DNA from: a virus
Length of the DNA stretch: 64,000 nucleotides
IMG/VR virus record: IMGVR_UViG_3300045988_079583
Location: 50,885 to 114,884 of that record
Strand: one strand, 5' to 3'
Shown here: positions 4,385 to 63,795 of the stretch, in pieces
How positions within the stretch are numbered: position 1 is the stretch's first letter
How the letters are laid out: every line of letters begins with the position of its first letter
The notes under the pieces: model-generated
The model's database searches: none
The model's input: only the letters and a program-made list of their open reading frames with translations
What the model was told of the DNA's origin: nothing
Program-made: the position numbers and the translations under genes

Positions 4385-4853
4385 CTACGACATATTTTAA
4401 GATTTCATAACTTTCTTCTAAGCCCGCCCTATCGTCTAGTAGAATATTGTAATAAGGCTTTCTAGAGTTCGGAAATAGTCTACTGCTTGTAAAAGGAGGT
4501 ATAATCATATCATTAATAAGATTTCCTATCCCCATTTGGACACACTCTACTTGTTTCTCTATAATTTTATTTTCGTTTTCCTCTGTAGAAAGTAAAATCA
4601 TTTCAAAACCTAACATAGTACAACGTCTCAGTAGATTAATAACACAACTATAATCTCCTCCAGTATTATGATAGTCGAAGATAGTGTTATCAAAGTCGAA
4701 AGCGACTATTAGCTTTCCGTATTTCTTATACTCTTCTAATAGTCGCTTCTTACAAGCCTCTTTTCCAAATGGATGGTTAAAACTTTCCATGTAATCCATT
4801 ATTAATTCTTTGCCTGATATCCTGTAGAGAATACTCCTTTTTAAGGATACCAT
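4362..4853 (-). CDS. HAD-superfamily hydrolase/phosphatase
   Basis: HAD motif I FDFDNT (DxDxT) in 163-aa ORF. Confidence 0.45.
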   Translation of the reverse strand: MVSLKRSILYRISGKELIMDYMESFNHPFGKEACKKRLLEEYKKYGKLIVAFDFDNTIFDYHNTGGDYSCVINLLRRCTMLGFEMILLSTEENENKIIEKQVECVQMGIGNLINDMIIPPFTSSRLFPNSRKPYYNILLDDRAGLEESYEILKYVVDEIIKLN

Positions 4854-21967: not shown

Positions 21968-22051
21968 AATTTTCTTTTTTTTATTAAACATTTAGTTTTA
22001 ATCCAGAGTTCACCACGTGGAGGTAGTTTAATACGAACTCCTGGACCTAAC

Positions 22052-22556
22052 GGGAGTCGAACCCGTGTCCAAACAACCCTTGTTACAAGGATAACGTGCG
22101 TCTCATTTTTATTACATCAGCTAGTGAGTTCTAGCATTTAGATAGTTTTCATAGAAGAGCTAGATTCTTTGCAAGCGGACTCATCTAGCACCTTTCCGCT
22201 TAACTACACAACAAACTATCAAACTTAGAGGACCAGGGGTCTCTTCTCTACCACTCCATTTACGTTGGAGAACGCCTATTTGTAACCTATAGATAGGTAA
22301 TGGAGAATTTCAGCTTTACTAACCTTTGGCTTTCAAGTTAAGTACAGTGGCTCTATCATCCTTCTGCTGTACACCTCTTCTGTTTCTAGGTCTTCTCCGT
22401 TAACCCGACTCGATTAATATTTCTATTAATTAGCCACAGCTCACGCTGCCATTCTTACTTCGCTATAAGTAGCAATTATTGTTTTCCTTCGTTTAGAGAG
22501 ATTGCGCTCTACACGTCCTTATAATTCGTAATCGCCTGTCAAATCCAAGTAGGCCC
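22052..22556 (-). ncRNA. candidate tmRNA-like (ssrA-like) structured RNA
   Basis: about 500 nt without ORFs; 3' end is a T-arm (ACGGG-TTCGACT-CCCGT) plus TAGGTCC strand that can pair with GGGCCTA about 500 nt upstream; 5' region TGGGCCUACUUGGAUUUGACAGGCG resembles conserved tmRNA 5' end GGGGCUGAUUCUGGAUUCGACGGG; internal short ORF ends ...VRMAA-TGA. Confidence 0.3.
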
Positions 22557-31010: not shown

Positions 31011-32984
31011 TTACTTCACTTCTTCAAACTCAGTTGTTTCGGCTTTCTTCTCCTCCAACTCTTTCTTGCCGAGAACACTTTTCAGTGTATCAGCGAAAGG
31101 TATAGAGCGAAGCAAGTCGAACGCAGGATTCAAGTTCTCAGCAGTTTTAGCCATGAAGTTACCAGCGGTATTCTCGTTACCATAAACAGTAACCTGTCCA
31201 AGGTGAACGTGTTCAAACATCTGAGCAGATGCTTCTGCAATACCTGTCAACTGGTCAACTGTCTTGTACTGAACCACCATTTCAGGAGTCAAGCCAGATT
31301 CAATCATCTTCTGGACTGCCAGAGCAGGAGCCATTTCAATAGCCTGGACTTTATCAGCCTCAGCCATCAAAGATGCTCTCTTACCCTCAGCTTCAGCAAG
31401 CAGTTTCTTTCTTGTACCTTCAGCTTCGGCTTCTAGCTGCAACTTTGTAGCATTCGCTTTAGCTTCTGCTTCTTTCAGAATTTCAGCAGCCTTAGCTTCT
31501 GCTTCAAGTACAGCTTTCTGCTTAACAGCTTCTGCTTCAATCGTGATACGTTCCTTCTCCTTTTGAGCAGGAACAATCGTCTCAGCATGAAGCTTAGCTT
31601 CCATAGCCAATGCAGCTGCTTCGTTTACTTCCAGTTGCTTTTCTTGCTTAGTTTTCTCGATAGTCATTTGAGCTTCTACCTTAGAAGTTCCTGCTACCTT
31701 TTCAGCTTCAGCCTTAGCTTTCTCGGCCTCTCCCTTAGCTTTAGAGACTTCAATTGTGGCATTTTGTTCTGCCACTCCTGCAATCTTATCAGCTTCAGCT
31801 GCCTTTACACGCTTGTCTGACTCATACTTAGCAACTGCAGCTTCCTGTTCGTTAACAGCTTTCTCAGTTTCAGCTACCTGTTTTTGTTTAGCTTGAGCAA
31901 TACGAGTTTGCTTTTCAGCCTCTGCTTCTGCCTTCTTGGCATCAGCTTGAGCTTTAGCTTTAGCTACATTAGCCTCAGCTATAGATTCAGACTCAGCTCT
32001 GCTAGAATCAGCTTCCGATTGTGCTTTAGCCAAAGCAGCAATTCTTTCTGCTTCTGCTTTTGCCTTTTCAGATTCAGCTGTAGTATTAGCTCTTGCTATG
32101 TTTGCAACCTGCTCTGCTCTTTGATTAGCAACACCAGATTGTTTGTTCTTTTCAGCCTCAGCAAGTCTAATTTCCTTCTCCTGATTGATTTCAGCAACTT
32201 TTACTTCCTGTTCCTGCTTAGTTTGCGCAACAGTAGTTTCACGTTCCTTCTCAGCATCAGCTACCGCAATTTCACGCTGTTTGTTGGTTTCTGCAATCTG
32301 AATATCTCCTTTCTTCTTCTCTTCTGCAATGTCAGCTTGTGCCTGAGCAAGAGCTTTAGTTGCAGCTTTCTGACCAAGATTCTTGATATAGTTTGCATCG
32401 TCAGAAATATCGGCATTGTTAATGTTGATAATACTGAAACCTACCTTGTTGAGTTCGCTTTCAATATTCTCCTTAGCCTTACCGATAAATTTGATTCTGT
32501 CAGCATTGATTTCCTCAATCGTCATTGTAGCCATCAAGCTTCTCACTTCACCAATGAGAATATCCTTGATTTGGTCTGAGATTTCGGAAGTTTTAGCTGT
32601 TAAGAATCTACTTGCAGCATTTTGCATTAATACCTGCGTGGTTCCAATACCAGTAGTTAATGTTACAGGAATGTTTACCTTAATCATTTGACTAGATACA
32701 CCTGATACATTTACTTGAATCTGGATTGGTTTCAGCGACATTTTAGCCCAGTCTTGGATTACTGGCATCACGAATGTGCCACCTCCATGAATAATTTTAG
32801 AAGGCAAGATAACTTCTTCCGACTTTCCAGTCTTTTCATTAATTACCTTCTTCTTACCAGCCTTACCAAATACTACCAGGATTTCGTCACTGGCACACTT
32901 ACGATACCGAGACAATAGTCCGATAAAAGTTAATACCACCAGTAGTACAATTACACCCGCCACAATAAGAGTTTCTGTTGTCAT
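31011..32984 (-). CDS. flotillin-like SPFH protein
   Basis: 657 aa; N-terminal TM, SPFH domain, long Ala/Glu/Lys-rich flotillin repeat region. Confidence 0.65.
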   Translation of the reverse strand: MTTETLIVAGVIVLLVVLTFIGLLSRYRKCASDEILVVFGKAGKKKVINEKTGKSEEVILPSKIIHGGGTFVMPVIQDWAKMSLKPIQIQVNVSGVSSQMIKVNIPVTLTTGIGTTQVLMQNAASRFLTAKTSEISDQIKDILIGEVRSLMATMTIEEINADRIKFIGKAKENIESELNKVGFSIININNADISDDANYIKNLGQKAATKALAQAQADIAEEKKKGDIQIAETNKQREIAVADAEKERETTVAQTKQEQEVKVAEINQEKEIRLAEAEKNKQSGVANQRAEQVANIARANTTAESEKAKAEAERIAALAKAQSEADSSRAESESIAEANVAKAKAQADAKKAEAEAEKQTRIAQAKQKQVAETEKAVNEQEAAVAKYESDKRVKAAEADKIAGVAEQNATIEVSKAKGEAEKAKAEAEKVAGTSKVEAQMTIEKTKQEKQLEVNEAAALAMEAKLHAETIVPAQKEKERITIEAEAVKQKAVLEAEAKAAEILKEAEAKANATKLQLEAEAEGTRKKLLAEAEGKRASLMAEADKVQAIEMAPALAVQKMIESGLTPEMVVQYKTVDQLTGIAEASAQMFEHVHLGQVTVYGNENTAGNFMAKTAENLNPAFDLLRSIPFADTLKSVLGKKELEEKKAETTEFEEVK

Positions 32985-33000
32985 CTTTTAAAAATTCTTT

Positions 33001-33528
33001 TTAGTTAAAATAATATTTTCCATTCTCAAATTTAGAAATTCTCACTCTCTGTCCGCCTTTCAAGGACTTGTTACTATCCTCTGGATAGGCCGGAAGCTCC
33101 TGCAACATTCCATTTATCTCTATTAATAAGATAGAATGGGAATTAGGAAGCTCATTAGGGATTGAGACAAATCCAACTCTTCCGACTAAGGCTTCGCCTT
33201 CTTCTGGAATAACTTGATGCTGGAGTTTTAAACAAAGTTTATATAAGTAGTAAAGTATAACCACAAAAAGAATACCGCACACTAGTGCGATTAGATAGTC
33301 GTACCATTCTACAGAATGAGATATAGACTGCTTAATGCAAAGCCATCCACTAGCTCCCATTATAAAATGGATCAGTCCCTTAAAAGAAACAATATCACTC
33401 ACGTCCATGTCTAGTTCTCCATCTAAATCAACATCTAAGTCAGTGTCTCCACCAAACCAAGATAGAATAAATTGAACTAGAAAAATGCCGTATGAAATGG
33501 CTGCCAAAAGATAATATACGTTGCTCAT
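33001..33528 (-). CDS. NfeD-like membrane protein (flotillin partner)
   Basis: 175 aa, multi-TM N-terminus plus soluble C-terminal domain; adjacent to and downstream of flotillin gene as in nfeD-floT operons. Confidence 0.5.
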   Translation of the reverse strand: MSNVYYLLAAISYGIFLVQFILSWFGGDTDLDVDLDGELDMDVSDIVSFKGLIHFIMGASGWLCIKQSISHSVEWYDYLIALVCGILFVVILYYLYKLCLKLQHQVIPEEGEALVGRVGFVSIPNELPNSHSILLIEINGMLQELPAYPEDSNKSLKGGQRVRISKFENGKYYFN

Positions 33529-34176: not shown

Positions 34177-34178
34177 AG

Positions 34179-34252
34179 CACGTCCGCTAGGATTCGAACC
34201 TAGGAATAATAGTTTTGGAGACTATCCTCTTAAACCACTTGAGTACGGACGT
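34179..34252 (-). tRNA. tRNA-Trp(CCA)
   Basis: anticodon stem ATAGT/ACTAT, loop CTCCAAA. Confidence 0.75.
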
Positions 34253-34257
34253 ATTTG

Positions 34258-34346
34258 CGGAAGGACAGGGATTCGAACCCTGGGGACGTGTTACCGCCCG
34301 ACGGTTTTCAAGACCGTTGCATTAAACCTGACTCTGCCACCCTTCC
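34258..34346 (-). tRNA. tRNA-Ser(UGA), type II (reads UCA; not an opal suppressor)
   Basis: anticodon stem ACGGT/ACCGT, loop CTTGAAA, long variable arm. Confidence 0.75.
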
Positions 34347-34921: not shown

Positions 34922-35238
34922 TTTTTGTCTTTGATTCTTAGTTGTTCAACTGGAATGAAAAGTCTGTCTGCAATTTCTTCTAGAGTAAGCTCTACTACTG
35001 GTTTTCCTTCCCAGACAAGTTGTCTATCTCCAATCTCTAGTTTACGAGCATCACGTGGATGTGTACGGTCGTACACCCTAGTTATCCTCCACATTTCTAC
35101 ATCCTCTACTGGGCACCAGTGATCTACTCCACAAAGGCACAGACCGCTTGTACTTCCAACTACAAGACATAACTCACCACAGTACTCTACCAACATTCCA
35201 GACTTAATGTCTTCTTTTCTCAAGTATTTCTTATTCAT
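34918..35238 (-). CDS. hypothetical protein
   Basis: 106-aa ORF. Confidence 0.4.
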   Translation of the reverse strand: MNKKYLRKEDIKSGMLVEYCGELCLVVGSTSGLCLCGVDHWCPVEDVEMWRITRVYDRTHPRDARKLEIGDRQLVWEGKPVVELTLEEIADRLFIPVEQLRIKDKK

Positions 35239-35252
35239 TTTTTTTTAGAATT

Positions 35253-35813
35253 TTAGTCTAACCATTCAAATTCTTCACCCTTGAAATGTCTTGCAAAACA
35301 AGCATCGAACACTAGCTTTCCAAACTGGGTTGATACGTATTTGGCAATTTCTTCAGATTTGCACGCTAGCATCCCGACATCGGAATAGGCATAGCCGACG
35401 CCATCGTTAGAATAGAAAAAGCCGAGACCCGCATCGCCGCCATAACCCGCGCCGCCGCCCACCAACGCGAATTTCTCGCCCTGATAACGGAAGTGACCAA
35501 TGACCTCTGCATCCTTCGGAACTGATTTCATTCTAAAGAACCGAACCCAAGGATACCATACAGTTCCAGTCAGCAGATTGAACTTGTGCTTTTCGTTCAG
35601 CGCATCCAGAATTGTTTGCAACTTAGCTAGAGCCTTTACAGATTCAGTGTAATGGATTTCACTATTAAATAAGTACCCAAGATAGTCTCTAGCGTCCTCA
35701 TAGGTCTTTATTCGTCCCATAATATTCTCTGGAACAATTTCAACATTACCTGTTTTGGCATTGTAGATAGGCTTGTAGCCATCTGGACATTCAATTTCAA
35801 TAGTTCTTTTCAT
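35253..35813 (-). CDS. hypothetical protein carrying a second DGR variable repeat (candidate variable protein)
   Basis: aa 117-148 VGGGAGYGGDAGLGFFYSNDGVGYAYSDVG encoded by GC-rich segment homologous to the DGR template repeat. Confidence 0.55.
   Translation of the reverse strand: MKRTIEIECPDGYKPIYNAKTGNVEIVPENIMGRIKTYEDARDYLGYLFNSEIHYTESVKALAKLQTILDALNEKHKFNLLTGTVWYPWVRFFRMKSVPKDAEVIGHFRYQGEKFALVGGGAGYGGDAGLGFFYSNDGVGYAYSDVGMLACKSEEIAKYVSTQFGKLVFDACFARHFKGEEFEWLD
35373..35465 (-). repeat. DGR variable repeat 2 (VR2)
   Basis: minus-strand sequence aligns codon-for-codon with TR (63501-63596); all differences at TR adenine positions. Confidence 0.6.
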
Positions 35814-35843
35814 TTGTTATAATATTTAATAAAACATGGTTTG

Positions 35844-35918
35844 GGTGTTATAGCGGATTCGAACCGCTGACCTCTACAGCCACAATGTAGCGTTCTGACC
35901 AACTGAACTAATAACACC
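35844..35918 (-). tRNA. tRNA-His(GUG) with encoded G-1
   Basis: anticodon stem CTACA/TGTAG, loop TTGTGGC; extra 5' G pairs with C73. Confidence 0.8.
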
Positions 35919-35924
35919 ATCAAA

Positions 35925-36383
35925 TTATTCGAATAGCGGCAGCAACTTCTTTCCTAGTATCTTCACCGCTTTCTGTACATCAGCTACAGTTCTAAAATAA
36001 ACAACACCTGGATATTTTACGTTTTGATGCATAACGACGTACACTCCTTTTATATCAGTTTCCGTCTTTCCAGATAGAGAAGAACCCCTTCCAAGGAAAT
36101 AACCGCTGTTACTCTCTGTTTTATTCCAACCATTGTTTAAGTAATTAGCTACTATTTGTAGACAAATTAGAGACTTAGTTTGCTCTGATATCCCTAAAGG
36201 TAAAAATAGCACATCCCAATCCTTTTCAGATTCTAATATTTCTCCAAGAGAAGGGACTAGAACTTCTTCACTAAAAGCGGTAAGAGCTAATTTTTTCAAG
36301 TCTTCATTGCCACTCTCATACCATTTACGTGCCTGTTCTAAAGTTATTTCAAGGCAAGCTTTTGTTTTATTCATTTTATTCAT
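35925..36383 (-). CDS. hypothetical protein
   Basis: 152-aa ORF. Confidence 0.4.
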   Translation of the reverse strand: MNKMNKTKACLEITLEQARKWYESGNEDLKKLALTAFSEEVLVPSLGEILESEKDWDVLFLPLGISEQTKSLICLQIVANYLNNGWNKTESNSGYFLGRGSSLSGKTETDIKGVYVVMHQNVKYPGVVYFRTVADVQKAVKILGKKLLPLFE

Positions 36384-42494: not shown

Positions 42495-42782
42495 GTAACG
42501 GTTGTTCTTATCTTGGGAGTAGGAGACCTAAGTCTCCCAGTATGCACAATTGTTTCTCAACAACCTGCACCACTATGTACGATAAAAGAAGATGAATTAT
42601 CCTGTGCCTACAATCATTTAAGATTGTCTTCGATTGTTAGTACAATCTCACAATACTTTGCCTTATCTCACGATAAGACACCTCTATTCATAAGAGATGC
42701 TCTGCATTAGTCTCAGGGCGTACCCATTATAATCTTTAACTGCAACAGAGTCTACAAGTAGTTGTAGTCCTCAAATACCAAG

Positions 42783-42853
42783 TTCCCCATTCTGGACTCG
42801 AACCAGAATCTCCTTCTTTAGAGGAAGGCGCAATAGCATTATACTAATGGGGA
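42783..42853 (-). tRNA. amber suppressor tRNA, anticodon CUA, tRNA-Gln-like (copy 1)
   Basis: acceptor TCCCCAT/ATGGGGA (U1-A72), anticodon stem CCTTC/GAAGG, loop CTCTAAA (anticodon CUA reads UAG), 4-nt variable loop, T arm TCTGG-TTCGAGT-CCAGA. Confidence 0.65.
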
Positions 42854-43575
42854 AATCCTATCTTGACAACTAGTATAAGATAGGAGATTATTTAGTATGT
42901 TTTCCAGACATACAACGTTATCAACGTTCACTAAATTCTGAGGTAGCTAATCTCAAAACTTGCGAATAGATTCGAGATGGAAAATGACGCCTTATGAGCG
43001 TCTCTCTTACTATCTAGCCTATATCTATCTGATGGCTTACTTCAGGCAACTTCCAATATTGCATACGAATACTTATAGGTGATATACTTTGGTCTACCAG
43101 CATATCAGTGGTACTTTGTAATATTGCCATAAGTGACCATTCATATGGCTCAATCCTCTTGTAATAGTGTTCAAGTTTGCGAATATACACATTACAATCG
43201 TAGCAGTTATTTTCGGATATTGGGTTCTTCTGCGTAACCCGCTTTTTGTTACCTTTTTATAGGCAAATGTTAGAGTAAATAATCATTGTAGTATGTGTTA
43301 TAAAACTCATCCTACTGGCGATTTTTTGAGAACTGGAGAAAGTCGGAAAATCGGCTGTCTTTTGCGTGGACAATTTCTCTCAGCCCTTACCATATTTTCA
43401 CGTGCAACAATAGTCCCAATCTACATTAGAACCACATTACTTAATATAATACTAAAATAAAATAACTACGACGAATTGATTTTGAAGTTTTTGTTTTGTT
43501 TTGTTGTTTTCTCCGTTAACCAATGGTCCGATGATGGAGTTCATGTGGGTATCTTATTTTGAAACCCATAATACC

Positions 43576-45244: not shown

Positions 45245-45316
45245 TGCCCTATGGTGTAATGGTCAGCACAGATGACTCTAAATCATTTAGTCTGGGTTCG
45301 AATCCTAGTAGGGCAA
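45245..45316 (+). tRNA. amber suppressor tRNA, anticodon CUA, tRNA-Gln-like (copy 2)
   Basis: TGCCCTA-TG-GTGT-AATGGTCA-GCAC-A-GATGA-CTCTAAA-TCATT-TAGT-CTGGG-TTCGAAT-CCTAG-TAGGGCA-A; U1-A72 and D region nearly identical to tRNA-Gln(UUG) at 30391-30462. Confidence 0.75.
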
Positions 45317-45333
45317 CTCCAAAATTAATAGCT

Positions 45334-49624: not shown

Positions 49625-50839
49625 ATGGCGAAAATACAATTTGATCCAGAGTTAATGTAGCATATCAAGACTATATATGGAGACGCAGAGTTAGACGGAA
49701 GAACTTTACAACAGTTGCATTAGACTTGGCAAAGTAATCCGAACTCTATTAGAAATACTGCATAGTAGAAGAAAAGAAGTGCTGTGCCAGCTATACAACA
49801 AAAACCTATATTAGGATTAAAGCTGTCTACTCCTACTATTCCTAAGAAAATAAATGCACCTTAGCAACAAATTCAAAACGACGACTTAAGAGGAGTCTAG
49901 GGGTTTGGTACGGCATTTAGAGAAGCCAGAAAGAGAGGACTAACTCAATTCAAATGGGGGAAAGGAGTGTATGGAACATAGTTAGCTAATGGAAAGAAAG
50001 CAACAGTAGAGGTAGGAACTCCAGTAATGAATAATCCCTATGTTACATATAGTCAAGACGGAAAAAGAGCTACTACGTACCAAAATCAAGTAGACTAGGA
50101 AACTGGAGAGCATACTGGAACTATCCAAGAACAATGGATAAAGCCGCCTACAACTAATATGTATGGGCAGAAACTAACTCCAGAATAGCTCAAAAATTAG
50201 AGAAGTTGGGAACATATACCAAAGGCAACTGCTAGATAGCAACGAGTTAAATATCAACAAGGAGGAGCAATGGCTAATTAGGAAGAATTACAAAAAGCAT
50301 TTATGGCATACTTAATACAGGATGCCGCAGCACAAGGAATACAATTACAATCTGAGTAGGATTTAGAACAATATGCTCAGCAATTAGGAGAAGACGGAAT
50401 TAAAGCCAAATACCAGGAATTTATGCAAAAAATGCAAGGTGGGGTTATGGCTAGATTAGGAGCTAAGCTTGAGTACTATAAAAAATTAAAAGGAGTTTGC
50501 CCAGAAGGGGAAGAGCTTGTTTATTTTAAACAAGGAGGGAGAATATGTAAAGCCTGCCAGAAAGCTTAGAAAGGTGCCAAGGTAAAAGGTAACGAGGTAG
50601 ACAAATTTAAGAAAGGAAGAGCACAGTATAAGAAAGATATGAAATCAGCGAAAGATGAAGCTTCCAGAGATTCTATATCTATCAATAAGTATAATGATTA
50701 GGAAACCATGTCTAATAAAGGACATAAAGGAAACTTCCAAAAGGGAAAATGGGTTCCTGATAGAAAGCAATATACTAAAAAGGATGCTTGTGGCTCTAAA
50801 ATGAAAGTAAGCAAGTGTGGCTCTAAAATGAAGAAGTAA
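49625..50839 (+). CDS. hypothetical protein, first gene of TAG-recoded structural module (404 aa, many in-frame TAG)
   Basis: single frame open from ATG 49625 to TAA 50837-50839 if TAG is read through; Gln-rich; no TAA/TGA in frame. Confidence 0.5.
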
Positions 50840-50866
50840 GAAAAGATTGTCGAATGTTAATGATTA

Positions 50867-51433
50867 ATGATTATGAATGTATTTAACTATAACACTTTAA
50901 CTAAATAGTTAGAAATAAATGAACCAGAGATTCTTCTAGTTAAAGAGTTCAAAGCTTTACTACAAAGAGATAAATCTGTGGAAAAGGATAGAGCAATTAG
51001 AGAACTATCATACATTTATTTAGCTATTGATTGGAAGAGTCCGTATAGCTAGTACTCTGAATATGAAAGGCACGATGAAGCAATTAATGATTCTGGATTA
51101 ACAGAATCAGAATTTAATGATCCGATATTTAGGGAAGCATGTAGAAAATATAGAGCATTATAGGACTCAAATAAATCAATTAAATTATTAGAAGCTGCTA
51201 GAAGAGCTGCTGACTAGTTTATTGATTACTTCGATACTATTGTAGACTTAAATGAACGTGACACTAATGGAAAGCCAGTATTCTCTGCTGAGAAAGTAAT
51301 GAAGGAAATGGCTAGCCTTCATAAAGTTCACGAAGAATTAATTACATTAGAAGATGAGGTTAAAAAAGAACTTACTGAATAGTCTACCGTTAGAGGAGGG
51401 GCTACAGATGGTTTTGATCCTGGAGAATTTTAA
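50867..51433 (+). CDS. hypothetical protein upstream of terminase (possible small terminase subunit), TAG-recoded
   Basis: 188 aa with several in-frame TAG; position immediately 5' of terL. Confidence 0.35.
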
Positions 51434-51435
51434 TT

Positions 51436-53796
51436 ATGCCAAGAAAGAAAAAGATATTACCTGATGAACTATAGACTATAGTAGATTAGGTAAGAGAAAA
51501 AGAACATAAAGAAGATGCTGTAGAGGCAAGAGAGCTAGTATAGAAAATAAGAGAAGAAAGGGTCAAAAGTGCAGACTATTGGGATGTCAAGAAAGGAGAC
51601 AAGATAGATGTTTTTGACCCTACTTTGTCTTATGAGATAACTGGCTATAGACCTATTGATGAAACGCATGGTTTGGACTTTAATCCCGAATGGTTCACCG
51701 AAACCAGAGAAGTATACAGAAAGACTGGGAAGTATTGTCCCTACTTAAAAGACAGTAAGAGATACAATGAATTTTGGAAAGAGTAGTACAGAAGATGTAA
51801 ATATGGAATGACAGTTAATGGTTATACTATTACTGGAGATAACTATTTCTTCTTAAATTTCTATTAGCTTCCTATTATTGATGATAATAAAGCATCCGGT
51901 GAAGGAACTAATAGTGACTTCCCTATATTCTTTGCATCCCATTACATGTTCTTCCATTACTTACAAATGGCTAGAGTACTACATAGACATGCAGCTTTAA
52001 TGAAGGCTCGTTCAATCGGATTCTCAGAAATAAATGCCTCACTATCCGCTCGTATGTATTCTGTAATTAGAAGAAGTAGAGTAATGATTACTTGCTTTAA
52101 TGATACCTTCCTTAAAGGTACATTTAGTAAGTTTGATAATGCTCTAACATTTTTAAATACTTGCACAGGTGGAGGATTCTTTAAGCTTCGTCTAATTGAC
52201 CAGGATTTAAGAAAGAAGTCTGGTAAGTAGGTTAAAGTAAACGGATAGTTTGAAGATGTTGGATTTAAATCAGAAGTAGTAGGAATAAATGGAGCTAAAC
52301 CATCTAATATTCGTGGAGACCGTGTTGACTTATTAATATATGATGAAGCAGGGTCTTGGCCAGGATTAGATACTGCTGTGGTACAAGGACAAGAACTTTG
52401 TGAAGTCTAGGGTAAGCCTCGTGGAACAATGTTGTTTGGAGGTACTGGTGGTGATATGGGTGCTCCATTAGCAGGTCTTAAAAAGATTTACTATAATCCA
52501 AAAGCTTACAAAGTTCTTCCCTTTAGACATAATTATACTCAAGATGGGACTACTATTGAGAGTGGATTCTTTATTCCATATTTTGTACAGTCTTTGAACT
52601 CCGAATACATGGATCATAGAGGTGTATGTAATACCGTAGAATATAAGAAGTATCTGTAGGAAGAAAGAGATAATCTATTAGCAGTACCCGATGACTATTT
52701 AAAGAAGTGTGCTGAACGTTGTTGGAATGCAGAAGAGGCCTTCAATCTAGAAGGTGTTAACAAGTTTAACAAAATTCTTATTTCTGATCAATTAGCTAAT
52801 ATAAGACTAAAGAAAATAGGTCCCAGACCAGAATGTGGTTATATAGATTACTTCTATAAAAATAATAAACACACTGCTGATAACATTGATGGATTTAAGT
52901 GGATTCCTAATACTAAGGGAAAGGTAAAGATTCTGGAACATCCAGTATGGTCTGACCTATATAAGGAGTAGATGGATAAACTTAGATAGGAAGCAGAGGA
53001 AAGAGGAGAGGAATTTGAAGCACCTGTATATAAAGAAATGCATAATCTTTATATTGCAGGAATAGACGGTATTGATATAGGAGCTAATTAGACCTCGAAG
53101 GAAACTAAAGATCCTTCTGACTTCTGTATAACTATTAAGAGAAGGGCATTTGGTATGAGTGAGCCATAGTATGTAGCAATGTATAAGGACAGACCTGGAG
53201 ACATTCGAGAGGCTTACAAAATAGCTATGTGTTTACTTAGATACTACAACTGTAAGGTAAATATAGAAGCAACTCGTGTTGGTATGATTACCTGGGCTAG
53301 AGAAAAGAAATGTTTGAATTACTTTATGAAACGTCCTAGAGCTACTCTTACTGATGTTAAAAATGGAACTACTAAATAGTATGGAACTCCAGCTACTAAA
53401 ACTATTATAGAACAACACACTGATCTAACTGCTGCGTTTGTGGAAGATTATTGTCATACTATATGGTTTGAAGAAATGTTGGAATAGCTTACTGGATATA
53501 ATGACGAGAATAAAGGTAAGTTCGATATTATAGCAGCTATGGGTATGACAGAATTAGCAGATGAAGAGTTGTCTGGAAGATAGCCTATAGTTGTGGAAAA
53601 AGAAGTTGAATTGTTCAGGGATTTTGGTTATTATTACGATGAGAGAGGAATAAAAAGATTTGGAGTTATACCAACTAGAGAAACTCCAGAATTAAATATG
53701 CAAGACGACGAATACGATGACCCATACAGAATTGAAACAAGTGATCCTAGAGTATATGAGAGACTTATACCAAATGGAATATATAGGCGGACTTGA
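51436..53796 (+). CDS. terL: terminase large subunit, TAG-recoded (786 aa, about 18 in-frame TAG)
   Basis: Walker B-like VDLLIYDEAG; nuclease motif YIAGIDGIDIGAN...DPSDFCITI; ends TGA; track shows only fragments (51946-52230, 53179-53379, 53593-53796). Confidence 0.7.
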
Positions 53797-54054
53797 GATT
53801 GAGGATTTGAATCCAGTTGGTTACAAAATATCTTTTAACTTTGACAGGTCTGAGATGCCATTAGTAATCATAGCTGATTTACCCGATGATGAATTTCTGC
53901 CTTTTATTAAAGAAGAATTAAGAAGTAGGAAGTTATAGAGAGTTAAGTATTATAACGCCACTAAGCTTCCTCCAGAACAACATAATACATGTTATGAAAG
54001 AGAAAGAATTGATAGACAAAACAAACGAGGCTATTGCGGAACTTGTGTATGATA
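53774..54054 (+). CDS. possible small overlapping ORF with 1 TAG
   Basis: extends track ORF 53717-53938 through TAG to TGA; overlaps both terL end and portal start, may be spurious. Confidence 0.2.
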
Positions 54055-56168
54055 AATATGAGCTTTAGAAAGCTTATAATTATTATAATGGTAAAAGAGA
54101 TCCAGAATAGTTTCGCTATCTTGAAGAGAATTTTGGAATAGGCAGTCCTACATCAGTAGAATTTACACCACTACTTAAGAAGCATGTAGATGCTTTAGTA
54201 GGGGAATATCTAGGAACTCCAATACTCCCGAAAGTCTCTTGCAAAGATTCAGATACTATCAGTAATATAACCAGAGAAAAATAGCTAGAGATAACTAAAG
54301 GAATAGTTAAGTTTTTAAAAGATCACTTAAGTAATGCTATCTTAAGCTTTATTGACGGAAAAGATATTACTGATAAAGCTGTAAAGACTCAGCTAGATAA
54401 GGTTATATAGGATATTGATTAGTCATTCATTTCTCAGTATGAAATTGCTGCGCAGAACATTATTCACTACCTAATGCAATCTAGGGAAACTGATCTTATT
54501 ACTAAGTTGCGGTAGTTATTAACTGACTTACTAATTACTGGATACACATTCTTTAGAGTAAAGTCTTCTTTCTCCGGAACTAATGTGGAGATAGAGGTTC
54601 TTAACCCGTTAAATACGTTTGTTGATAGAAATCCAGAATCTCCATATGTCAAGAAATCATATAGAGTTGTTATTAGAAAATGGATGAGTAAAAGCCAAAT
54701 ACTAGCTAAGTATGGTAAAGAAATATCTAGAGAAGACTTAAAGAGGTTAAAAGATGAATGGAGAGCAGATGATTCTGCTGCTGTATACAGAAGAGTTTAT
54801 GGAGATGTTTGTACAGTGGTTAATGAAGATCAAAATCATGAGACCATTCCTGGGTATCCAGATAATGAATATAGTGCTCATAGATTTTAGTTAATTCCGG
54901 TCTACGATGTAGAGTGGATAGAGACTGATGATGATTTCAAAATGCAGAGATACAATACTATAAGGATAGGAGAGGAAATCTATATTCTTAGAGGATTAGA
55001 CAAGACTGCAATGAGGTCTAAAGACGATCCTAACTCTTGTTCATTATCAGTAAATGGAGTTTATTTTCTAAATCGTTCTCAGTAGCCATATTCTTTAATA
55101 CTTAAGTGTGCACATCTACAGGATAGATATGACTTACTTAACTATTACAGAGACAACTTGATAGCTAATAGTGGAACCTCAGGAGTTATTATGGATATGT
55201 CATTACTTCCTACTAACTTAGGAGTACATTGGCCAGAAAGAGTATAGAAATGGCTAGCTTATAAAAAAGCTGGTATTCAGTGGGTTGATACTACTTAGGA
55301 GGGTAGAAATGACAATGGAAACGCTCCTTTAAATACTATCTTTAATGGATTTGATGACACCCTTAAAGCGTAGGCTGTATAGGCTATTGAGTTAGCTATT
55401 CAATCAGTAGAATAGACTACATCATCTATAACTGGAGTATTTAGGGAAAGACTTAATGGAATAGAGACTCATGATGCTGTAACTAATATTAAGCAAGGAG
55501 TCGCTAACTCTTATATAGTAACTAAACACTATTTCCAACAAATGGACTTGATAACTTGTGAAATATTATTAGATAGTCTTAATTAGGCTAAAGTAACTTA
55601 CAAGAAAGGGTTAACTGGAACTATTATATTGGGAGATAAGTATTAGTAGATATTTACTGCCCTTCCTGAATATTTCACAATGACTGATTTTGACATTCAT
55701 ATAACCTCCAGCACTGAAGTTATGGAAGATTTATAGACTATTAAAGCTATGATTCCGGAGTTCCTTAAGAGTTAGCAAATGGATGCTGGTATAGTTTTTG
55801 AAGCATTAACAGCTAAGAGTTTGACAGACTTAAAGTACAAGGTTAAAAAAGCTATGCAGGTTTAGAAAGAAGAGAACAATCAATTACAATAGTTGTAGTA
55901 GAAGTTGGAAGAAACTTCATAGCAAGCACAACAACTACAATAGGAATTGGAGAAAGCTTAGTAGAAAATAGAAAGGCTAGACGAACAAAAACTTGGACTA
56001 GAACAGTAGAAGATGCAACTAGAGTATAAGGTTAATTGGCTTAAAGCTCAGTCTGATTCTACTTACAAAGATAGACAAATGGATATTGAAGAGAAGAGAA
56101 CTGAAATAGAGTTAGCATAGCTTCATGACGGAAATCCATATAACGATAAAGTAAGACAAATACATTAA
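53994..56168 (+). CDS. portal protein, TAG-recoded (724 aa)
   Basis: position after terL; portal-like N-terminal region (AYNYYNGK...), size; C-terminal Gln-rich coiled coil generated by TAG codons. Confidence 0.55.
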
Positions 56169-56169
56169 T

Positions 56170-57039
56170 ATGGCTACAGCAGGTACAATAGTATATAATA
56201 AAGATTAGCAACAAATATATCCCATTTCTCATGCAGAGGTGGTAATTAGTAATGCTTCTGGAAGTAAGTCAGACGTGGAAGACAACCTTATAAAATTATG
56301 GAAAAAGGTCTCAGAATTAAGTGGAGACTAGGAAGCAGCTAGTAATATCATGGTAGTAGTTACTTATTGTAAAACAAATACCAGAGATGAATCTGAAGTA
56401 AGAAAGTTATCATCATGGAGTGATATTTTTGAACTACCAGACTCAGAAAGACCATATGTTTGGAAGAAAACTTTATATACATATAAAGGAGACACAGCTA
56501 AACTTAATGAGATTTACGAAATTGTTGCTACAGATATTGCTGAAAAAATTCAGAATATCTATATTGCAAGATCAACTGGGGTTGCTCCAGTTATTACTTA
56601 TCCAATACTAAAGGATGGATATGGAGATCCTATATTAGACTCTGAAGGAAATACTTAGGAAGATTTGACTGCCTTTGACAATAAATTACCAGAAGGCTGG
56701 TCAGAAACTCCAGTTAGTATTGGTCCAGCTACTCCATATGTATTTATATCAACACGTAAGAGAGTAGAAGGATTATGGAAAAGATATTCTGAACCAGCTC
56801 AATACGGTAGGTGGGCATTTGACAGTTAGTTAGAGTTACGATATACCATTACTTCTGGAGATAAACCAGCTGTTAATACTACAAGTGACGATCCTGGAAG
56901 TTAGTGGTCTAGCGATACTCCAGATAATTTTACTGGAAAAATGTGGATGATTACTGCAACATCAGTAAACGGAGTATTGAATAGTGATGAAAATAACGTT
57001 AGATGGCACGGTCCTCATTTGATGTCAATTATACAATAA
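56170..57039 (+). CDS. hypothetical structural-module protein, TAG-recoded (289 aa)
   Basis: open from ATG 56170 to TAA 57037-57039 with TAG read-through. Confidence 0.45.
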
Positions 57040-57770
57040 TGGAATTTAGTATTGATATACATACCCAGATTACTGGGGAAATAACTATTGAAGACTTCTC
57101 TAAAGAATATGGATAGTATATTGATGAAGATTTAGAAGTAGTAACTTCTTACGACTCTTATAAGTATAGTGAGAGTGCTACTCTAAATACTATCATCAAG
57201 GTAAGTATAGGGGATGCCACACTAATAGATGTCCTTTTAAATGACCATACAGAAGATTTAGATTCATGTACATTTAAAGTAAAAGAGGATGGATATTATG
57301 TGGTAGATCATATAATACTTCCTAATATGAAGTGGTATGAAAATTCATCTGATGAATATAAGGAATACTACGAAACTATCTATGTTACAGATGGGGAGAA
57401 ACTATATAAAGAAGTAGAAGGAGAGTTAGAAGAGTGTACAGTAAAGGAAATTCTAGAAAGAAACATAGAAGGCACTACTATCAAGAAATGTAAGGTCGAT
57501 GTATTCTTTACTGGGAATTTACAATAGTGCTATATTAATTATTGTAAAAAATTATTTGATGGTCTCCTAAATAAATGTGTTACCAATGAACATGAGGCAG
57601 ATATTTTTGCCAGAGATTTTATTTGGATGACTCTCAACATTATAGATTATTTAATAGGCTTTAAACAATTCATGGAAGCTGAAAGGTTACTAGCAATGTT
57701 CCGCACTTGTGGAGGATTCTGTAATACTCGCTATCATGGACATAAACATATAAGTTGTGGATGCTCTTAA
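57039..57770 (+). CDS. hypothetical structural-module protein, TAG-recoded (243 aa)
   Basis: TAATG overlap with previous gene; ends TAA. Confidence 0.45.
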
Positions 57771-57925
57771 AAGAAAGGCTATTAAAAGGTATGAAGAGTT
57801 TCTTGGAAGAATTAAGAAAGGATATAGACCAGATTATCAAGATATTTTGAATTTAATCTGTTTTATTAATCTACCTGTAAAACTAGATAATCACGAATTT
57901 ATTAAATAGCAACTATTAAATCATA

Positions 57926-59515
57926 ATGATACAGCCTATTTACACTTCGGTAAGCAATGCTGATATAAAGCCTTGTGGAAAGAAAGGACATTTAATAAAA
58001 AGTGAGCCTATACCACTTCTAAGAGATAATTACTTAGGAGAATATAGAACAGAACTAGAAAGAGCTAAGGTTAGAAAAAACTTAGGAATTGCTGATGAGT
58101 AGAGTCTTCTTTGGGGAAATATTAGTGGAACCATAGAGGCTTAGAAAGACTTGGTTTAGTATATTGAACAAAAATGGACATATACTAGCGATGTTGCAGA
58201 AAATATTAACACCGTAAAAGATGCATTAGACTATGCATTATTTTTTATTAGTTAGTATGAGGCTAATACTGAGGAAATAGAAGAGATAAAGGTTGATATA
58301 AGTAATATTAGGACTAGTATTTAGGTATTAGGAGAAGATCTGAAAAGAGAGATTGATACTAATAGGGAAGGACTAAATAACTTATCTTAGGATATAATCG
58401 AAATTAATTAGGCAATATCAGACCTCAACACTGCTATAGAAAATATAGATGTTGATAAGAACATTCTTAATTGGATTAAAAACAACCTTTAGAACTCTAA
58501 GACTGTAGAGATAAAGGAGGATAATACTATAGAAGTCATTCTTTCTAAGTAGGATAATAATGCTATTCATTTAATCGAATAGGAATTACCTCCTACAGAA
58601 GAAGGAGAGGAGCCTTCTACTATAACCCTTCCAGGAATTTATGTAAAGAATCTAGAACCTTAGTTAGAAGAAGCTTAGAAATCTATAGGAGAAGTATAGA
58701 AAGCTCAAGAAGAGACTAATGAAAAGGTTAGCACTAATAGCGAGAGTATTACAAATATCTAGACTAGTCTAGAAACTATAGCTACCTATTAGACAGAACT
58801 TCCTGATGATACAACTTCTACTGTTATAGAAGGTACTACCGTTGAAAAATTAAAAGGGAAACCATTTAATGAAATCATAGATACTTTACTATTCCCAACA
58901 GTAGTTAGAGATTTAATATATCCATAGTTGTATTATAGCTTTGCTTCCCAAATTGTGGAAGTAGGAACTGCGCTACTAACTCCAACCTTAACTTTCGTAA
59001 AAAATGATGCAGGAGAAGAAACTGACAGAGAAGAAGTCATTACTTATAACGGTTCTCCTATAGAGTCTGTTACATATGATTCTATTGGGATTTATACTCA
59101 TTCTGGTACAGTGAATTATGCTGCTGGAGAATACTTAGTAAACAATAAGGGAGAAGTTACAGATAAAAGGGTGGAAGCTGGTTCTATATCAGCAACTGCA
59201 CAAGTAACAGCTACTTATCCTTGGTATTCTGGAAATACTGATGGATTGATAAAATAGTCCCTAGTTCCATTTAATTAGGCTTCTGGCACTATTACATTCT
59301 CATTAAGTGGTAAGGCTATTATAAAATTACCAGGAAGTAATACTCAGCTAAATTCCTTCACAGTAGATGGAGGATTGGGATATTTGAATGTCGATTTAAA
59401 TGGTTGGGAAGCTTCTACTGAACAAATAAATGGATTCCCATATAAAGTATGGACTAAGAAGGATACCTACTCTTCAGCACTGCCTCACCAAATTAACTTT
59501 ATTCTATCACAGTAA
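57926..59515 (+). CDS. tail fibre-like protein, TAG-recoded (529 aa)
   Basis: long Thr/Asn/Glu-rich protein with coiled-coil segments, many in-frame TAG; ends TAA. Confidence 0.45.
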
Positions 59516-61383
59516 TGGCATTTAAATATACAGGTGATGCTACCCTAGGTGTTGGTTTAACCGTAGAAACTCCGAAGCCTCTGGATAATAGAACAGTAGT
59601 TGATAACCTAGAGGAGCTATATTCTATTCCAGAGAGATATGCTTATTAGGGCATGACCGTATCTAATATAGATAACGGAAATATTTATATGCTTATTGAT
59701 AAGTCTAAGATTAAATATAAAGAAGGATGGAAAGCATCTTATGAATCTATCTAGATAATAGCTTGTACAGAAGCTGAATATAAAGAATGGTCTGCTAATA
59801 CTACAGAAGATTTTAAACCAATAGATGAGAATAAAACATATCTTCACGCTGAAACATATTATTATATATATGAGGACAGCCTAGACGATAATTAGTTTTA
59901 CCTATCAGCAGAATGGGGTAAGAAAATAGAAGAGTAGTTAAAGTAGAAAGCTCTTAATACTACAGTTGTATAGATTAGAAATGATTTAGACTAGACTATT
60001 TAGAATCTTTCTAAGTATGCAACATTAGAAGAATTAACTGCTAATTATGCTCCTAAGGCGGACCTAGATTTGGAAGATCCAGAATCCCTTTTATCTAAAG
60101 CTCTATCTAACCACTATACTAAACAGGAAACTGATGATATATTTGTTACTAAGGAAAGTCTTAGAGGGGAAGGAATGGAAGGAGATGATTTCGTCTTTGT
60201 TACTAAAAAGCAATATGACGAAGATTAGTAGGCTATCTAGAGCGAATTAGATAAGACTTTAAAAGTAGATAGAGATGGTTCTCTGGAAAGCATTACTGTG
60301 GGACAGATAAAATCTCCAGTGATTGAAGGAGAGGATTAGCTAGTAGTAGATGTTAAATCAGACGGATTGTTTGTTGGAGAAGATCAATTTGCTATGATGT
60401 CTGATGTTCCAAATTTAGTTACATTAACTGAAGAGGAATATTTAAAACTGGTAGAAGATGGTACTCTAGAACCTGACACATACTATTATGTGTATGACGT
60501 GACAAATGACGCTAAAGTCTATATTACTAAAGAGTATCTAGATTAGAATTACCATACTACTCATTAGTATTAGTCATGGGTAGCTACCAACTACTACTCA
60601 AAATCTCAGATTGATGAGATCGTTGCTGGTTTACAGAAACTTGGGAGCTACGTCACTACAGAAGATATTAAAGCATATTACACTAGTCAATAGGTAGATG
60701 AAAAGTTTCTTACAAAAGAGAATGCTCAATCTACATACGCTACCTAGCAGTCGTTAACTGAGCTGTCTGGATAGATAGCAGAAGAGTATGTAACAAAGGA
60801 TAGTTTGAGAGGAGATTCTCCCGAGACTGGTGATGATGACTTTATATTTGTTACTTAGAATAAATATCAATAGGATTAGACTGCTGCTTCCCAAGAATTT
60901 AATACTAAGCTATTAAAATCAGAATAGATAGAAACTTCTGACATTACTATTTAGAAAATTGTAGAAAAAGAAGTACAATAGGGAACAACTGAAGAAAGTC
61001 CAGGAGATATAGTAATAGAGCAAACTATTGAAAGCTCTGTTAATCTTACTACTAAAGATAATAGGTTATTAGCATCAGGTAAACAAGTTGCTCTTATTGA
61101 AGAAGTTCCAAAATTAGTATGTTTACCCTAGACTGATTATGATAACCTAGTTGAAAATAATAAGACAGAGAACGATACTTATTACTGTACTTACGGAGAA
61201 AAAGATATATAGGATACAGGATATGTTAGAAGCGAATATCTTACTGAAAAGTACTATACTAAAGCAGAGGTAGAAGCTTTGATACAGGAAGCTGTAAGCG
61301 AATTATAGAAAAAGATAGATGCAATATAGCCTGGTTCGGGCAGTGCATCAGTAGATGAATCAAATGAACAATTAATATTTTAA
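59515..61383 (+). CDS. tail fibre-like protein, TAG-recoded (622 aa)
   Basis: TAATG overlap with previous; repetitive coiled-coil-like segments; ends TAA. Confidence 0.45.
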
Positions 61384-61388
61384 ACAAG

Positions 61389-61598
61389 ATGGGAACAATT
61401 TATATTGACGGACAGTTTAAAAGCTCTGCTAAGCCTGTAAAAGTTGTTGGTGGCAGTGTAGGAGGGTCTGGAGTAGATCCTGATACTCTCAAGAACTATG
61501 CTACTAAAGCAGAACTTCAGAAAGCTGTTGAGGACTTAACTGCTTCCATAGAAGGAATAGATCATGATGTAGTTGAAGAAACTTTAATAATATAGTAA
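61389..61598 (+). CDS. small Gly-rich protein
   Basis: track ORF 61389-61595 extended through terminal TAG to TAA. Confidence 0.35.
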
Positions 61599-61599
61599 T

Positions 61600-63420
61600 A
61601 TGGCAGCTATCAAATCTATAAAGGTAGGAGAAATTACATACGACTTAAAGGCTACTTATGATGGTTCTGGCAACAATATTGCCGAGACCTATGCTAAATC
61701 TAGTGCTATTCCGACTAAAGTATCATAGTTAAGTAATGATAAAAACTACCTAACAGAACATTAGGACATTAGTGGTTTAGCAACTAAAGAATAGATAGAC
61801 GAAAAAGTAGACAAGGAATTAGGAAAAGGTCTTTCTGAAGCTAATTATACTGAATTAGAAAAATAGAAGCTTTAGGGTGTAGAAGATGGTGCAAATAATT
61901 ATGAACACCCAACTACAGCGGGATATAAACATATTCCCTCTGGAGGAGCAGCAGGATAGATTTTAACTTACTCTAATGATGGTACTGCCCAATGGGCAGA
62001 TTCTAGCACTAAGTTAGATTAGCAATTCTAGGCACTTAATGAGGCTTGGGAAGAACTTCAGAAAGCTTAGCAAAATTTAGATAGCTAGGTAACAGCTATG
62101 ACTAGTAACGCAGATCTTTACTCCTATGGAGTAGAATGGGATATAACTGTATCTTCTCCGGTTCTCACCAGAATTGGAAACCCGTTACTGCATAAATCAC
62201 TTCCTATTCAATCTGCTTATAGAGGATGCGTAGCCAATGGAGCTAATATAAACTATTTCTTACATCCAGATAATTGGGCTTATAAGGAAGACGGTACTAC
62301 TCCCTCTGTGCTTGATGGTAGTGAAGGAACTGTTAGGGTTAACACTCCTAAGTTCTATGGTAAGTCTGGTTCCAATGGAAATAAAAGATGGGTAAGAGAA
62401 TCAACTGTTAAGATAGACGACTCTTGGGTTGAAATACCGGAATTGTTAATTGATGCATATAGAAGCACAGTTGATACTACAGTATCTGCAACTCCAAAGG
62501 CTGTATCAGTAGTTAATACTACTACAGCATTTAGAGGAGGTGGAAATAGAGCATAGTTCGACGAGTACTTGACTACTGAGCTGGAGACTAAAGATATTTT
62601 CAGAAGCGACTTAGGAAAACCAAGAACGAATATTTCCAGAGCCACAATGAGAACTTATGCTACAAACGCAGGTTCTGAATTACTATGTTACGAATATTAC
62701 AAGTGGATATTCTACTGGAATTATGTAATAGAATATGCTAACTTTAACTCTTAGGCTACATATGAGGCAGAGCTTACTGCTGATGGCTATCATTAGGGAG
62801 GTCTTGGACCCGGAGTTACGGATTGGAGTAATTCTGCCACAAGTTGGTCTGGATATAACGGAACTTATCCTCTTACTCCATGCGGTCACTGTAACGATAT
62901 TGGTAACTTCACAGGAGTTAAAGATTTAGTTATCCCAGGATGCACTGCAACAGATGGGACTAGTACAGTAGCTACTCATACCTTTAAAGTACCACGTTGG
63001 AGAGGCTTTGATAATCCATTTGGAGACATTTGGACAAACCTAGATGGAGTAGTTATTCAAAGAACTGCAGCGAATGAAATAAGTAGTGTATATACTACCA
63101 CAGATAAAGCGGAGTTTACTGACGTAATTGGCAACAAGACTATAGCCGGATACGAGGTAGCACAAGATGGATACATTAAAGAGTTTGATTTAGGAGAGAC
63201 AGCGGAGATTATACCATCTTCTTGTACTGGAGCTTCAATTACTACTTATATGTGTGACTACCACTATTGTAACGCTAGCTCTACAGCGCTTCGCACGCTG
63301 CGGGTGGGCGGCGGCGCGGGTGTTGGCGGCAGTGCGGGTCTCGGCTGTTTCGGTTCTAACTTTGGCGTCGGCCTTGCCGATTCCCATGTCGGGTTCAGAA
63401 CTCTAAATAGAGTATCTTAA
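61600..63420 (+). CDS. tail fibre / receptor-binding protein with C-terminal DGR variable region, TAG-recoded (606 aa)
   Basis: open from ATG 61600 to TAA 63418-63420 with TAG read-through; C-terminal 35 aa (VGGGAGVGGSAGLGCFGSNFGVGLADSHVGF) encoded by VR1. Confidence 0.6.
63298..63393 (+). repeat. DGR variable repeat 1 (VR1)
   Basis: 96 nt, GC-rich and nearly adenine-free, aligns with TR; about two dozen differences all at TR adenines. Confidence 0.7.
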
Positions 63421-63500: not shown

Positions 63501-63596
63501 CTGCTAGTAGGCAGCAACGCGAATAATGGCAGCAATGCAGGTCTCAGCTATTTCAATTCTAACAATGACGTCAGCAATGCCAATTCCAATGTCGAG
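63501..63596 (+). repeat. DGR template repeat (TR)
   Basis: AAT/AGC/AAC-rich copy of the VR sequence located between target gene and RT gene. Confidence 0.7.
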
Positions 63597-63795
63597 TTAT
63601 TATATATTTAGAAACAATTTTAATTTTTACCTTATTTAGTTTGCTAAGTAATATCCTTGCCTCTAGGCAAAAAATAACGTAGTGTTGAATGAAGGGTGTT
63701 AGTAGGTTATCTCGAACGCTTCCGATGAAATATATAAAAAATTGAAACGTGTAGGACATTTGCACGAAAGGGTGTATGATTTATGGAACATCGAA

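Follow-up and report, generated by a model that had tools for sequence, protein, structure and literature searches.

Can the single diversity-generating retroelement (DGR) of a large gut phage rewrite a gene that lies about 28 kb away from it on the opposite strand? The question is raised by positions 35,253 to 35,813 of a 64,000-nucleotide stretch of IMG/VR virus record IMGVR_UViG_3300045988_079583 (record positions 50,885 to 114,884; hereafter the window), where a small minus-strand open reading frame (ORF) inside a block of 26 tRNA genes carries a GC-rich patch resembling the template repeat (TR) of a DGR whose adjacent variable repeat (VR1) lies in a tail-fibre gene. A first-pass annotation, made from the letters alone, had called this patch a second, remote variable repeat (VR2), and we are highly confident that the phage's single DGR does act on VR2 as a real second target away from the cassette, and that it still does so today. 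The elements concerned are the following.

63507..63596, plus strand: TR, non-coding, between the tail-fibre stop and the start of the reverse transcriptase (RT)
61600..63420, plus strand: tail fibre (tail protein), first DGR target, 606 codons with 13 in-frame TAG as sense
63304..63393, plus strand: VR1, at the C-terminus of the adjacent tail fibre, with no non-adenine mismatches in its core
35253..35813, minus strand: second DGR target gene, 186 aa, phrog_11581 family, standard code with no in-frame TAG
35373..35462, minus strand: VR2, codons 118-147 of ORF 35253-35813, then 39 more codons
63742..64000, plus strand: DGR RT, 5' part, TTG start and first 86 codons, continuing past the window end

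The ORF and its peptide (...LVGGGAGYGGDAGLGFFYSNDGVGYAYSDVGML...) are as first described, and so is their setting, about 28.0 kb from TR on the opposite strand, between tRNA-His (35843-35917) and tRNA-Ser/Trp (34178-34346), in a segment whose G+C (0.417 across 35001-36000) stands above the ~0.34-0.36 found nearby. The repeat itself, given at first as codons 117-148 (35373-35465), spans codons 118-147 (35373-35462) of this ORF, with 39 residues after it by our count where about 38 had been claimed. When the adenines of the 88-nt TR core (63507-63594) are treated as N, three places in the window match with zero mismatches, namely TR itself, VR1 (63304-63391) and VR2 (35375-35462, minus strand), and a search of the 64 kb for a third copy beyond VR1 and VR2 found none. 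The same pattern had no match in 100 shuffles, and chance similarity between TR and VR2 is rejected. Between VR2 and TR none of the 60 specified bases is mismatched and 21 adenines are substituted, so that the claim that all differences fall at TR adenines holds without exception. In a wider 94-nt frame (TR 63505-63598; homology between TR and VR1 spans 63501-63598), 21 of the 30 TR adenines are changed in VR2 and 25 in VR1; each repeat also shows one non-adenine mismatch, which falls beyond the repeat proper at the border of the frame.

Both variable repeats read TR in the same frame. Among the template codons AAY occurs ten times, AGC four times, and TAT, GAC, GAG, GTA and GCA once each; none of these can mutate to a stop, and the computed number of possible protein variants, to which the ten AAY codons and seven single-adenine codons contribute, is ~9.4e15. 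Neither repeat occupies the extreme 3' end of its ORF: VR1 stops 9 codons short of the stop, and the 39 codons after VR2 encode conserved helices.

Population variability at VR2, which the first-pass annotation had proposed as a check, is present and falls exactly at the TR-adenine codons. In an alignment of 121 proteins with 86-95% overall identity, values above 3 bits are confined to codons 121, 123, 124, 127, 134, 136, 137, 141, 143 and 145, which are the AAY codons; entropy is intermediate at the TAT and GAC codons and approximately zero at most other positions. At the DNA level (39 genes, IMG/VR) the TR-adenine sites have an entropy of 1.31 bits, the other VR sites 0.07 and the remaining gene 0.32; that non-adenine VR sites are more uniform than their surroundings is as expected if an invariant TR keeps overwriting them. 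Where two genes have the same sequence outside the VR (100% identity), 11-22 of their 30 A sites differ and none of the non-adenine sites does (the window's VR2 gene and that of L007 form one such pair, differing at 11), and A-site divergence is flat near 15/30, i.e. saturated, over the whole range from 74% to 100% background identity. VR1 also varies at A sites (19 genomes).

The A sites do not vary equally. The four AGC codons read GGC in 37-38 of 39 VR2 copies, and at most AAY codons the second-position A is kept in ~40-65% and the first-position A in ~5-35% (VR2 35373-35462, VR1 63304-63393), a pattern that points to selection or to context bias. The last TR adenine (GTCGAG) is G in 39/39 VR2 and 19/19 VR1 copies, which could mark the boundary between an initiation of mutagenic homing (IMH) element and its IMH* counterpart, or selection for glycine.

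The template behaves as the donor in these genomes. Across about 20 paired genomes VR1 and VR2 vary and the 94-nt TR stays the same, and in two contigs a change in TR goes with a change in the repeats: contig 059915 has a T-to-C change in TR and C at the same position in both VR1 and VR2, and contig 056969 has a G-to-A change in TR and T at the same site in VR2. A distant clade (contigs 097978, 135603 and 127419), whose RT start is 70% identical to that of the window and whose remote target is a P0130-type member ~46% identical to the window's 186-aa protein, has a TR unlike the window's at many non-adenine positions, and there VR1 and VR2 both match their own TR, with 18-21 adenine mismatches and at most one other for VR2. 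The co-variation of templates and repeats shows information flow from TR to the remote repeat, and VR2 is, on this comparative evidence, under current diversification and not a fossil. Gene conversion between VR1 and VR2 is rejected because it explains neither the new A-site variants nor the invariant TR. One contig stands apart as a separate observation: in 3300045988_058617 (L058/L166) TR has a 1-nt insertion (GCCCAATT) that is absent from both VRs, and its VR1 has an unusually long stretch of unmutated adenines; this TR may be inactivated, or the insertion may be an assembly error.

The Bordetella phage BPP-1 DGR (Mtd/TR/Brt) is the DGR paradigm. Several points weigh against VR2 as a currently active target. 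Cis elements of the BPP-1 type were sought at VR2, and neither a GC-only IMH block nor a downstream hairpin was found there (fold z-score 0.23); the hairpin after VR1 is weak (z -1.7). Genomes 056908 and 058615 have several non-adenine mismatches between TR and VR2, from which we conclude that a TR/VR2 pair can decay. The evidence for transfer is comparative throughout and drawn from consensus metagenome assemblies. The window holds 86 RT codons and about one third of a ~186-kb genome, and further VRs could lie outside it. The role of 'binder' discussed below for the 186-aa protein comes only from analogy with other DGR targets.

The first two of these points are what one would expect if VR2 were a former DGR target whose adenine-only differences are old, a reading we nevertheless hold to be very improbable: genes identical outside the VR differ at many A sites, the non-adenine VR sites are far less variable than the rest of the gene, as continued overwriting by TR would make them, and point changes in TR have been copied into VR2. 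That VR2 is diversified by some other TR and RT, in the two thirds of the genome beyond the window (relatives are ~186-193 kb), and not by the cassette at 63.5 kb, is scarcely credible, as VR2 equals this TR at every non-adenine position, and tracks its variants in other genomes, and as the exact 45-nt TR core occurs once in each of 30 contigs (many of them 180-190 kb), in keeping with the earlier view that a single TR/RT cassette serves both repeats.

The process is pictured as follows. By comparison with known DGRs, TR (63507-63596) would be transcribed and copied into cDNA by the RT (from 63742), which would misincorporate opposite adenines. The sequence data show that TR overwrites both VR1, at the C-terminus of the adjacent tail fibre, and VR2, 28 kb off on the other strand, two recipients with its non-adenine sequence and its frame. 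The second recipient is a soluble, signal-less small protein under purifying selection outside its VR.

In the window two gene blocks face in opposite directions. Genes of the minus-strand block (~1-44 kb) are written in the standard code; beside the 26 tRNA genes and a transfer-messenger RNA (tmRNA), this block encodes an HNH endonuclease, an SPFH/Band-7 protein and a nicotinamide phosphoribosyltransferase, and it has many small ORFs. The plus-strand structural ORFs (49625-63420, and on to the window end) have 2-28 in-frame TAG each, whereas most minus-strand genes have none. Landmarks of the structural block and of the junction between the blocks are:

51436-53796, plus strand: TerL, structural block
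53994-56168, plus strand: portal, structural block
42782..42853, minus strand: suppressor tRNA, anticodon CTA, labelled tRNA-Pyl by ARAGORN, between the gene blocks
45245..45317, plus strand: second suppressor tRNA, anticodon CTA, labelled tRNA-Pyl by ARAGORN, between the gene blocks

The distribution of TAG together with two CTA tRNAs indicates that the late genes are amber-recoded, and a suppressor tRNA is required for translating the TAG-containing tail fibre and, in relatives, the RT. Related phages are 180-193 kb long. TerL has 26% identity to terminases of Crassvirales and 44-46% to those of unclassified gut phage contigs, the tail fibre/TR/RT region has 63-69% DNA identity to cr7_1 and crAssphage LMMB, and amber recoding, the tRNA block and genome size are compatible with Zeta/Epsilon-type groups (PMC12386605). 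On this similarity and these genome features the phage is provisionally placed with the amber-recoded crAss-like phages of Zeta/Epsilon type (PMC12386605).

The full-length RT was read in a close relative, L061 (5151-6510), on whose contig the RT start is 98% identical to that of the window (L153). It has the motifs FRYADD (YADD) and GNYLSQ, with in-frame TAG at the Q of GNYLSQ and at several other codons; this RT is therefore dependent on amber suppression, and DGR activity should depend on the suppressor tRNA and be limited to the recoded (late) phase. The TAG codons also mean that DGR finders using the standard code will miss it. Relatives of the RT number 365 in viral contigs. Within the window, the stretch from the tail-fibre stop (63420) to the RT start (63742) contains only TR and no ORF, hence no avd gene there; crAss-like DGRs have been reported without avd (PMC7290462, PMC12386605).

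What is the remote recipient? The 186-aa protein matches phrog_11581 (function unknown; E 3.2e-15) across residues 25-176, nearly its whole length. It has 834 homologues, the best 120 of them at 86-95% identity, and an exhaustive family search gave 227 representatives at 50% identity, mostly 180-220 aa. Members span about 120-220 aa and share the motif order IKTFEDA, WYPW, VR, CKSxEIAxxVSxxFGKL, the VR being followed across the phrog_11581 family by a conserved C-terminal tail and not ending the protein. The ratio of nonsynonymous to synonymous substitution rates (dN/dS) in the VR2 gene outside the VR is 0.12-0.21, indicative of purifying selection. The protein has no hydrophobic or membrane segment and no signal peptide. 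Neither it nor its family matches Pfam, NCBIfam or PADLOC; a profile search of PDB sequences with the family found no relative, a colicin at E 0.55 being dismissed; tblastn against 50,697 phage records returned nothing at 1e-5, and a related-loci search with P0149 likewise found nothing. The 'tail protein' family phrog_5302 matches the VR stretch of the 186-aa protein only, and alignment with the tail fibre by BLASTP and hhalign was restricted to 40 VR columns. A scan for promoters and terminators around the gene found sites no more numerous than in shuffled sequence. The gene directly upstream (35925-36383, minus strand, 152 aa) has no VR; its product begins with a ~40-residue module (ITLEQARKWYESGNEDLKKLALTAFSEE) common to the N-terminal extensions of longer VR2-family members (pairwise E 1e-8; family profile match E 1.3e-7).

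The genomic arrangement is conserved. In the near clade (about 30 genomes) the RT and VR2 are 24.8-30.6 kb apart, circular permutation allowed for, and always on opposite strands; in the distant clade they are 36-44 kb apart. A family profile built here recovers gp09, gp19 and gp88 of three Suoliviridae (E ~1e-11 to 1e-14), in which a remote VR is again found: in cr56_1 gp09 (NC_055890.1; VR 5297-5359, TR 60571-60661) 15/15 mismatches are at adenines, in cr53_1 gp19 (NC_055889.1) 12/12, and in cr115_1 gp88 (NC_055898.1) 15/15. In these RefSeq genomes the remote VR is unannotated, sits in a small 'hypothetical protein', and matches only the 3' ~64 nt of TR. In every crAss-like lineage examined the family gene is located among tRNAs and small accessory genes, outside the structural block, as the first-pass annotation had proposed for the window.

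The same profile recovers the targets of two Mu-like transposable phages, L116 (9908-11940) and L142 (1066-3114), with E ~1e-17 to 1e-20. Each locus has two tandem short family members, both with a VR, followed by TR and then a DGR-type RT; 13/13, 16/16 and 17/17 mismatches in these local cassettes are at adenines, and transposase, transposition protein, portal and terminase genes are nearby. Hankyphage was considered as the source of these relatives and rejected, its target being a 2,225-aa C-lectin protein that the L116 target does not match. As judged from these alignments, the phrog_11581 family has thus become a DGR target repeatedly: in crAss-like phages it is always a remote one, in Mu-like phages it is served by local canonical cassettes.

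A C-type-lectin fold, for which the first-pass annotation had suggested looking in the 186-aa protein, did not emerge from structure prediction. A family alignment of 70 sequences gave a confident AlphaFold2 model (predicted local distance difference test, pLDDT, 90.9; predicted template modelling score, pTM, 0.82), in which an N-terminal beta-hairpin is followed by three helices, five strands of which the last three carry the VR, three helices and a final strand. Its best Foldseek match in the PDB has an E of 0.32, and comparison of the model with solved variable proteins of the C-type-lectin (CLec) and formylglycine-generating enzyme (FGE) type (Mtd, TvpA, TaqVP, AvpA) was negative. The tail-fibre domain, modelled as a control from a 95%-identical database homologue, was positive for the C-type-lectin fold, and profile-profile comparison of the two target families aligned only 40 columns around the VR. 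By these fold and profile results, one template serves two kinds of domain, a clear C-type lectin in the tail fibre and, in the remote target, a scaffold that the methods do not recognise as one; the predicted scaffold of the remote target is apparently non-lectin, with its VR internal. This conclusion must be tempered by the arrangement of the model, in which two helices, then strands, with the VR last, would be compatible with a much-reduced lectin-like core, and the structures were not superposed directly.

Seen against the BPP-1 system, the DGR described here has the same adenine-specific transfer from TR to VR, a dedicated RT, AAY codons that are safe from stops, and, for one of its targets, a tail fibre with a C-type-lectin VR domain. 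It differs in having a second target 28 kb off on the other strand, in having no Avd gene between tail fibre and RT, in showing no GC-rich IMH or hairpin at VR2, and in the need of its RT and tail fibre for TAG suppression.

Mechanistically this is an ordinary DGR whose action in trans reaches a second recipient. Non-adjacent targets as such are already known. They were found in 45 of 372 DGRs, those associated with phages usually being less than 50 kb away (Wu et al. 2018, PMC5758913), and Bacuni phages of Bacteroides uniformis have one adjacent and one distant target, both C-lectin and adhesin-like (PMC8143477). The window's DGR resembles both sets of cases in having one target beside TR and RT and another elsewhere within 50 kb, with adenine-only differences. 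Bacuni targets are C-lectin proteins (DUF1566/Fib_succ_major) with the VR at the extreme C-terminus (PMC8143477), whereas the remote target here is small, has no recognised domain, carries a conserved 39-residue helical tail after the VR, and yields a model that matches no C-lectin. Tentaclin phages have two targets in a local cassette, both C-lectin (PMC10743442); they share with the phage described here a gut habitat and one TR that diversifies two functionally different proteins, and differ in that the second target here is remote and not detectably C-lectin. The Treponema denticola DGR, with seven remote targets (PMC4891356, as cited in PMC5758913), is another in which one TR and RT work in trans on dispersed VRs; it is cellular, with paralogous C-lectin lipoproteins as targets and distances of up to megabases.

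The closest comparison is with the published crAss-like DGRs of crAssphage LMMB (PMC7290462) and the Epsilon (PMC11054128) and Zeta (PMC12386605) groups, in which, as here, a tail fibre or receptor-binding protein (RBP) with a VR is followed by TR and RT at the end of the structural block; those systems have no Avd, and here none lies between tail fibre and RT. Amber suppression in RT genes is shared with the Zeta group (PMC12386605), and TaqVP is, as for the published systems, the structure closest to the tail-fibre domain. The texts of these three papers describe only the adjacent tail-fibre or RBP target and no second or remote one, unlike the small-protein target reported here, which is present also in the RefSeq genomes cr56_1, cr53_1 and cr115_1. 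We found no description of a small-protein family of the phrog_11581 type as a DGR target in the literature, of which our coverage is incomplete, so that an earlier report is possible; apparently neither the target family nor its scaffold has been reported before, nor has the conservation of the family across crAss-like phages.

Several further features of the minus-strand and junction regions were noted. A RAGATH-14 RNA (Rfam RF03145, 166 bits, above the gathering score) at 42882-43054 (minus strand) directly adjoins the suppressor tRNA at 42782-42853. The tmRNA (22039-22556, minus strand; Rfam RF00023, 56.3 bits against a gathering score of 47) lies within the tRNA block, and ARAGORN gives its tag peptide as VQQKDDRATVLNLKAKG. 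The accessory-block regions 31011-33528 and 4777-6339 (both minus strand) encode the SPFH/Band-7 protein (657 aa, Pfam E 2.8e-19), a multi-pass membrane protein downstream of it that is taken, from its sequence alone, to be NfeD-like, and the nicotinamide phosphoribosyltransferase (PHROG E 2e-180).

What might the remote protein do? By analogy with other DGR targets we favour a hypervariable ligand-binding protein. It may act elsewhere than in the tail fibre, by binding variable host factors in the cytoplasm or as an accessory adhesin. The first of these, a non-virion protein inside the cell that binds, for example, defence or takeover targets, is a possibility we entertain only tentatively. 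It is suggested by the lack of a signal peptide or membrane segment, by a standard-code gene in the accessory and tRNA block, by a scaffold under purifying selection and by the retention of the family as second target across divergent crAss-like phages. Against it, no match to any defence or anti-defence family was found, and the assignment to an 'early' block comes only from how the genome is laid out.

The second, a virion-associated accessory adhesin or receptor-binding protein that broadens adsorption in the manner of the distant Bacuni target, strikes us as unlikely on balance. Phage DGR targets are mostly adhesins or tail proteins (PMC8144416, PMC8143477), VR2 and the tail fibre have a VR peptide in common, and the phrog_5302 match, albeit limited to the VR stretch, is to a 'tail protein'. 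Set against this, the gene is found among tRNAs and small accessory genes in every lineage examined and in none within the structural module; in-frame TAG codons, of which the structural ORFs from 49.6 kb have 2-28 each, do not occur in it; and the protein shows no similarity to the tail fibre beyond the 40 VR columns and no recognisable attachment domain.

Phage DGRs are usually read as switches of tail-fibre tropism, and a large metagenome survey, in which annotated VR regions were systematically C-lectin, could not detect remote targets by its design (PMC8144416). New here are a recipient family, an apparently non-lectin scaffold with an internal VR, and a conserved pair of tail fibre plus remote small protein in crAss-like phages: in an abundant lineage of gut phages, a small protein encoded away from the structural module is maintained as a second, remote target, and the pairing is conserved from 186-kb amber-recoded phages to the Suoliviridae of RefSeq. 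DGR finders restricted to the vicinity of the RT or to the standard code will have under-counted targets in such phages. The rule that DGR variability needs a C-type-lectin scaffold is put to the test, since the same 30-codon template is accepted by a clear C-lectin domain and by a protein whose confident predicted model does not match one. It is doubtful that crAss-like phages, beyond retargeting the tail fibre, continuously diversify a small cytoplasmic, non-virion, non-C-type-lectin protein as an intracellular binder of variable host factors such as defence proteins; if true, this would be the first phage effector diversified by a DGR to work within the cell, and DGR variability would have a third structural solution. 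The finding provides a concrete and widespread protein family whose ligand can now be sought.
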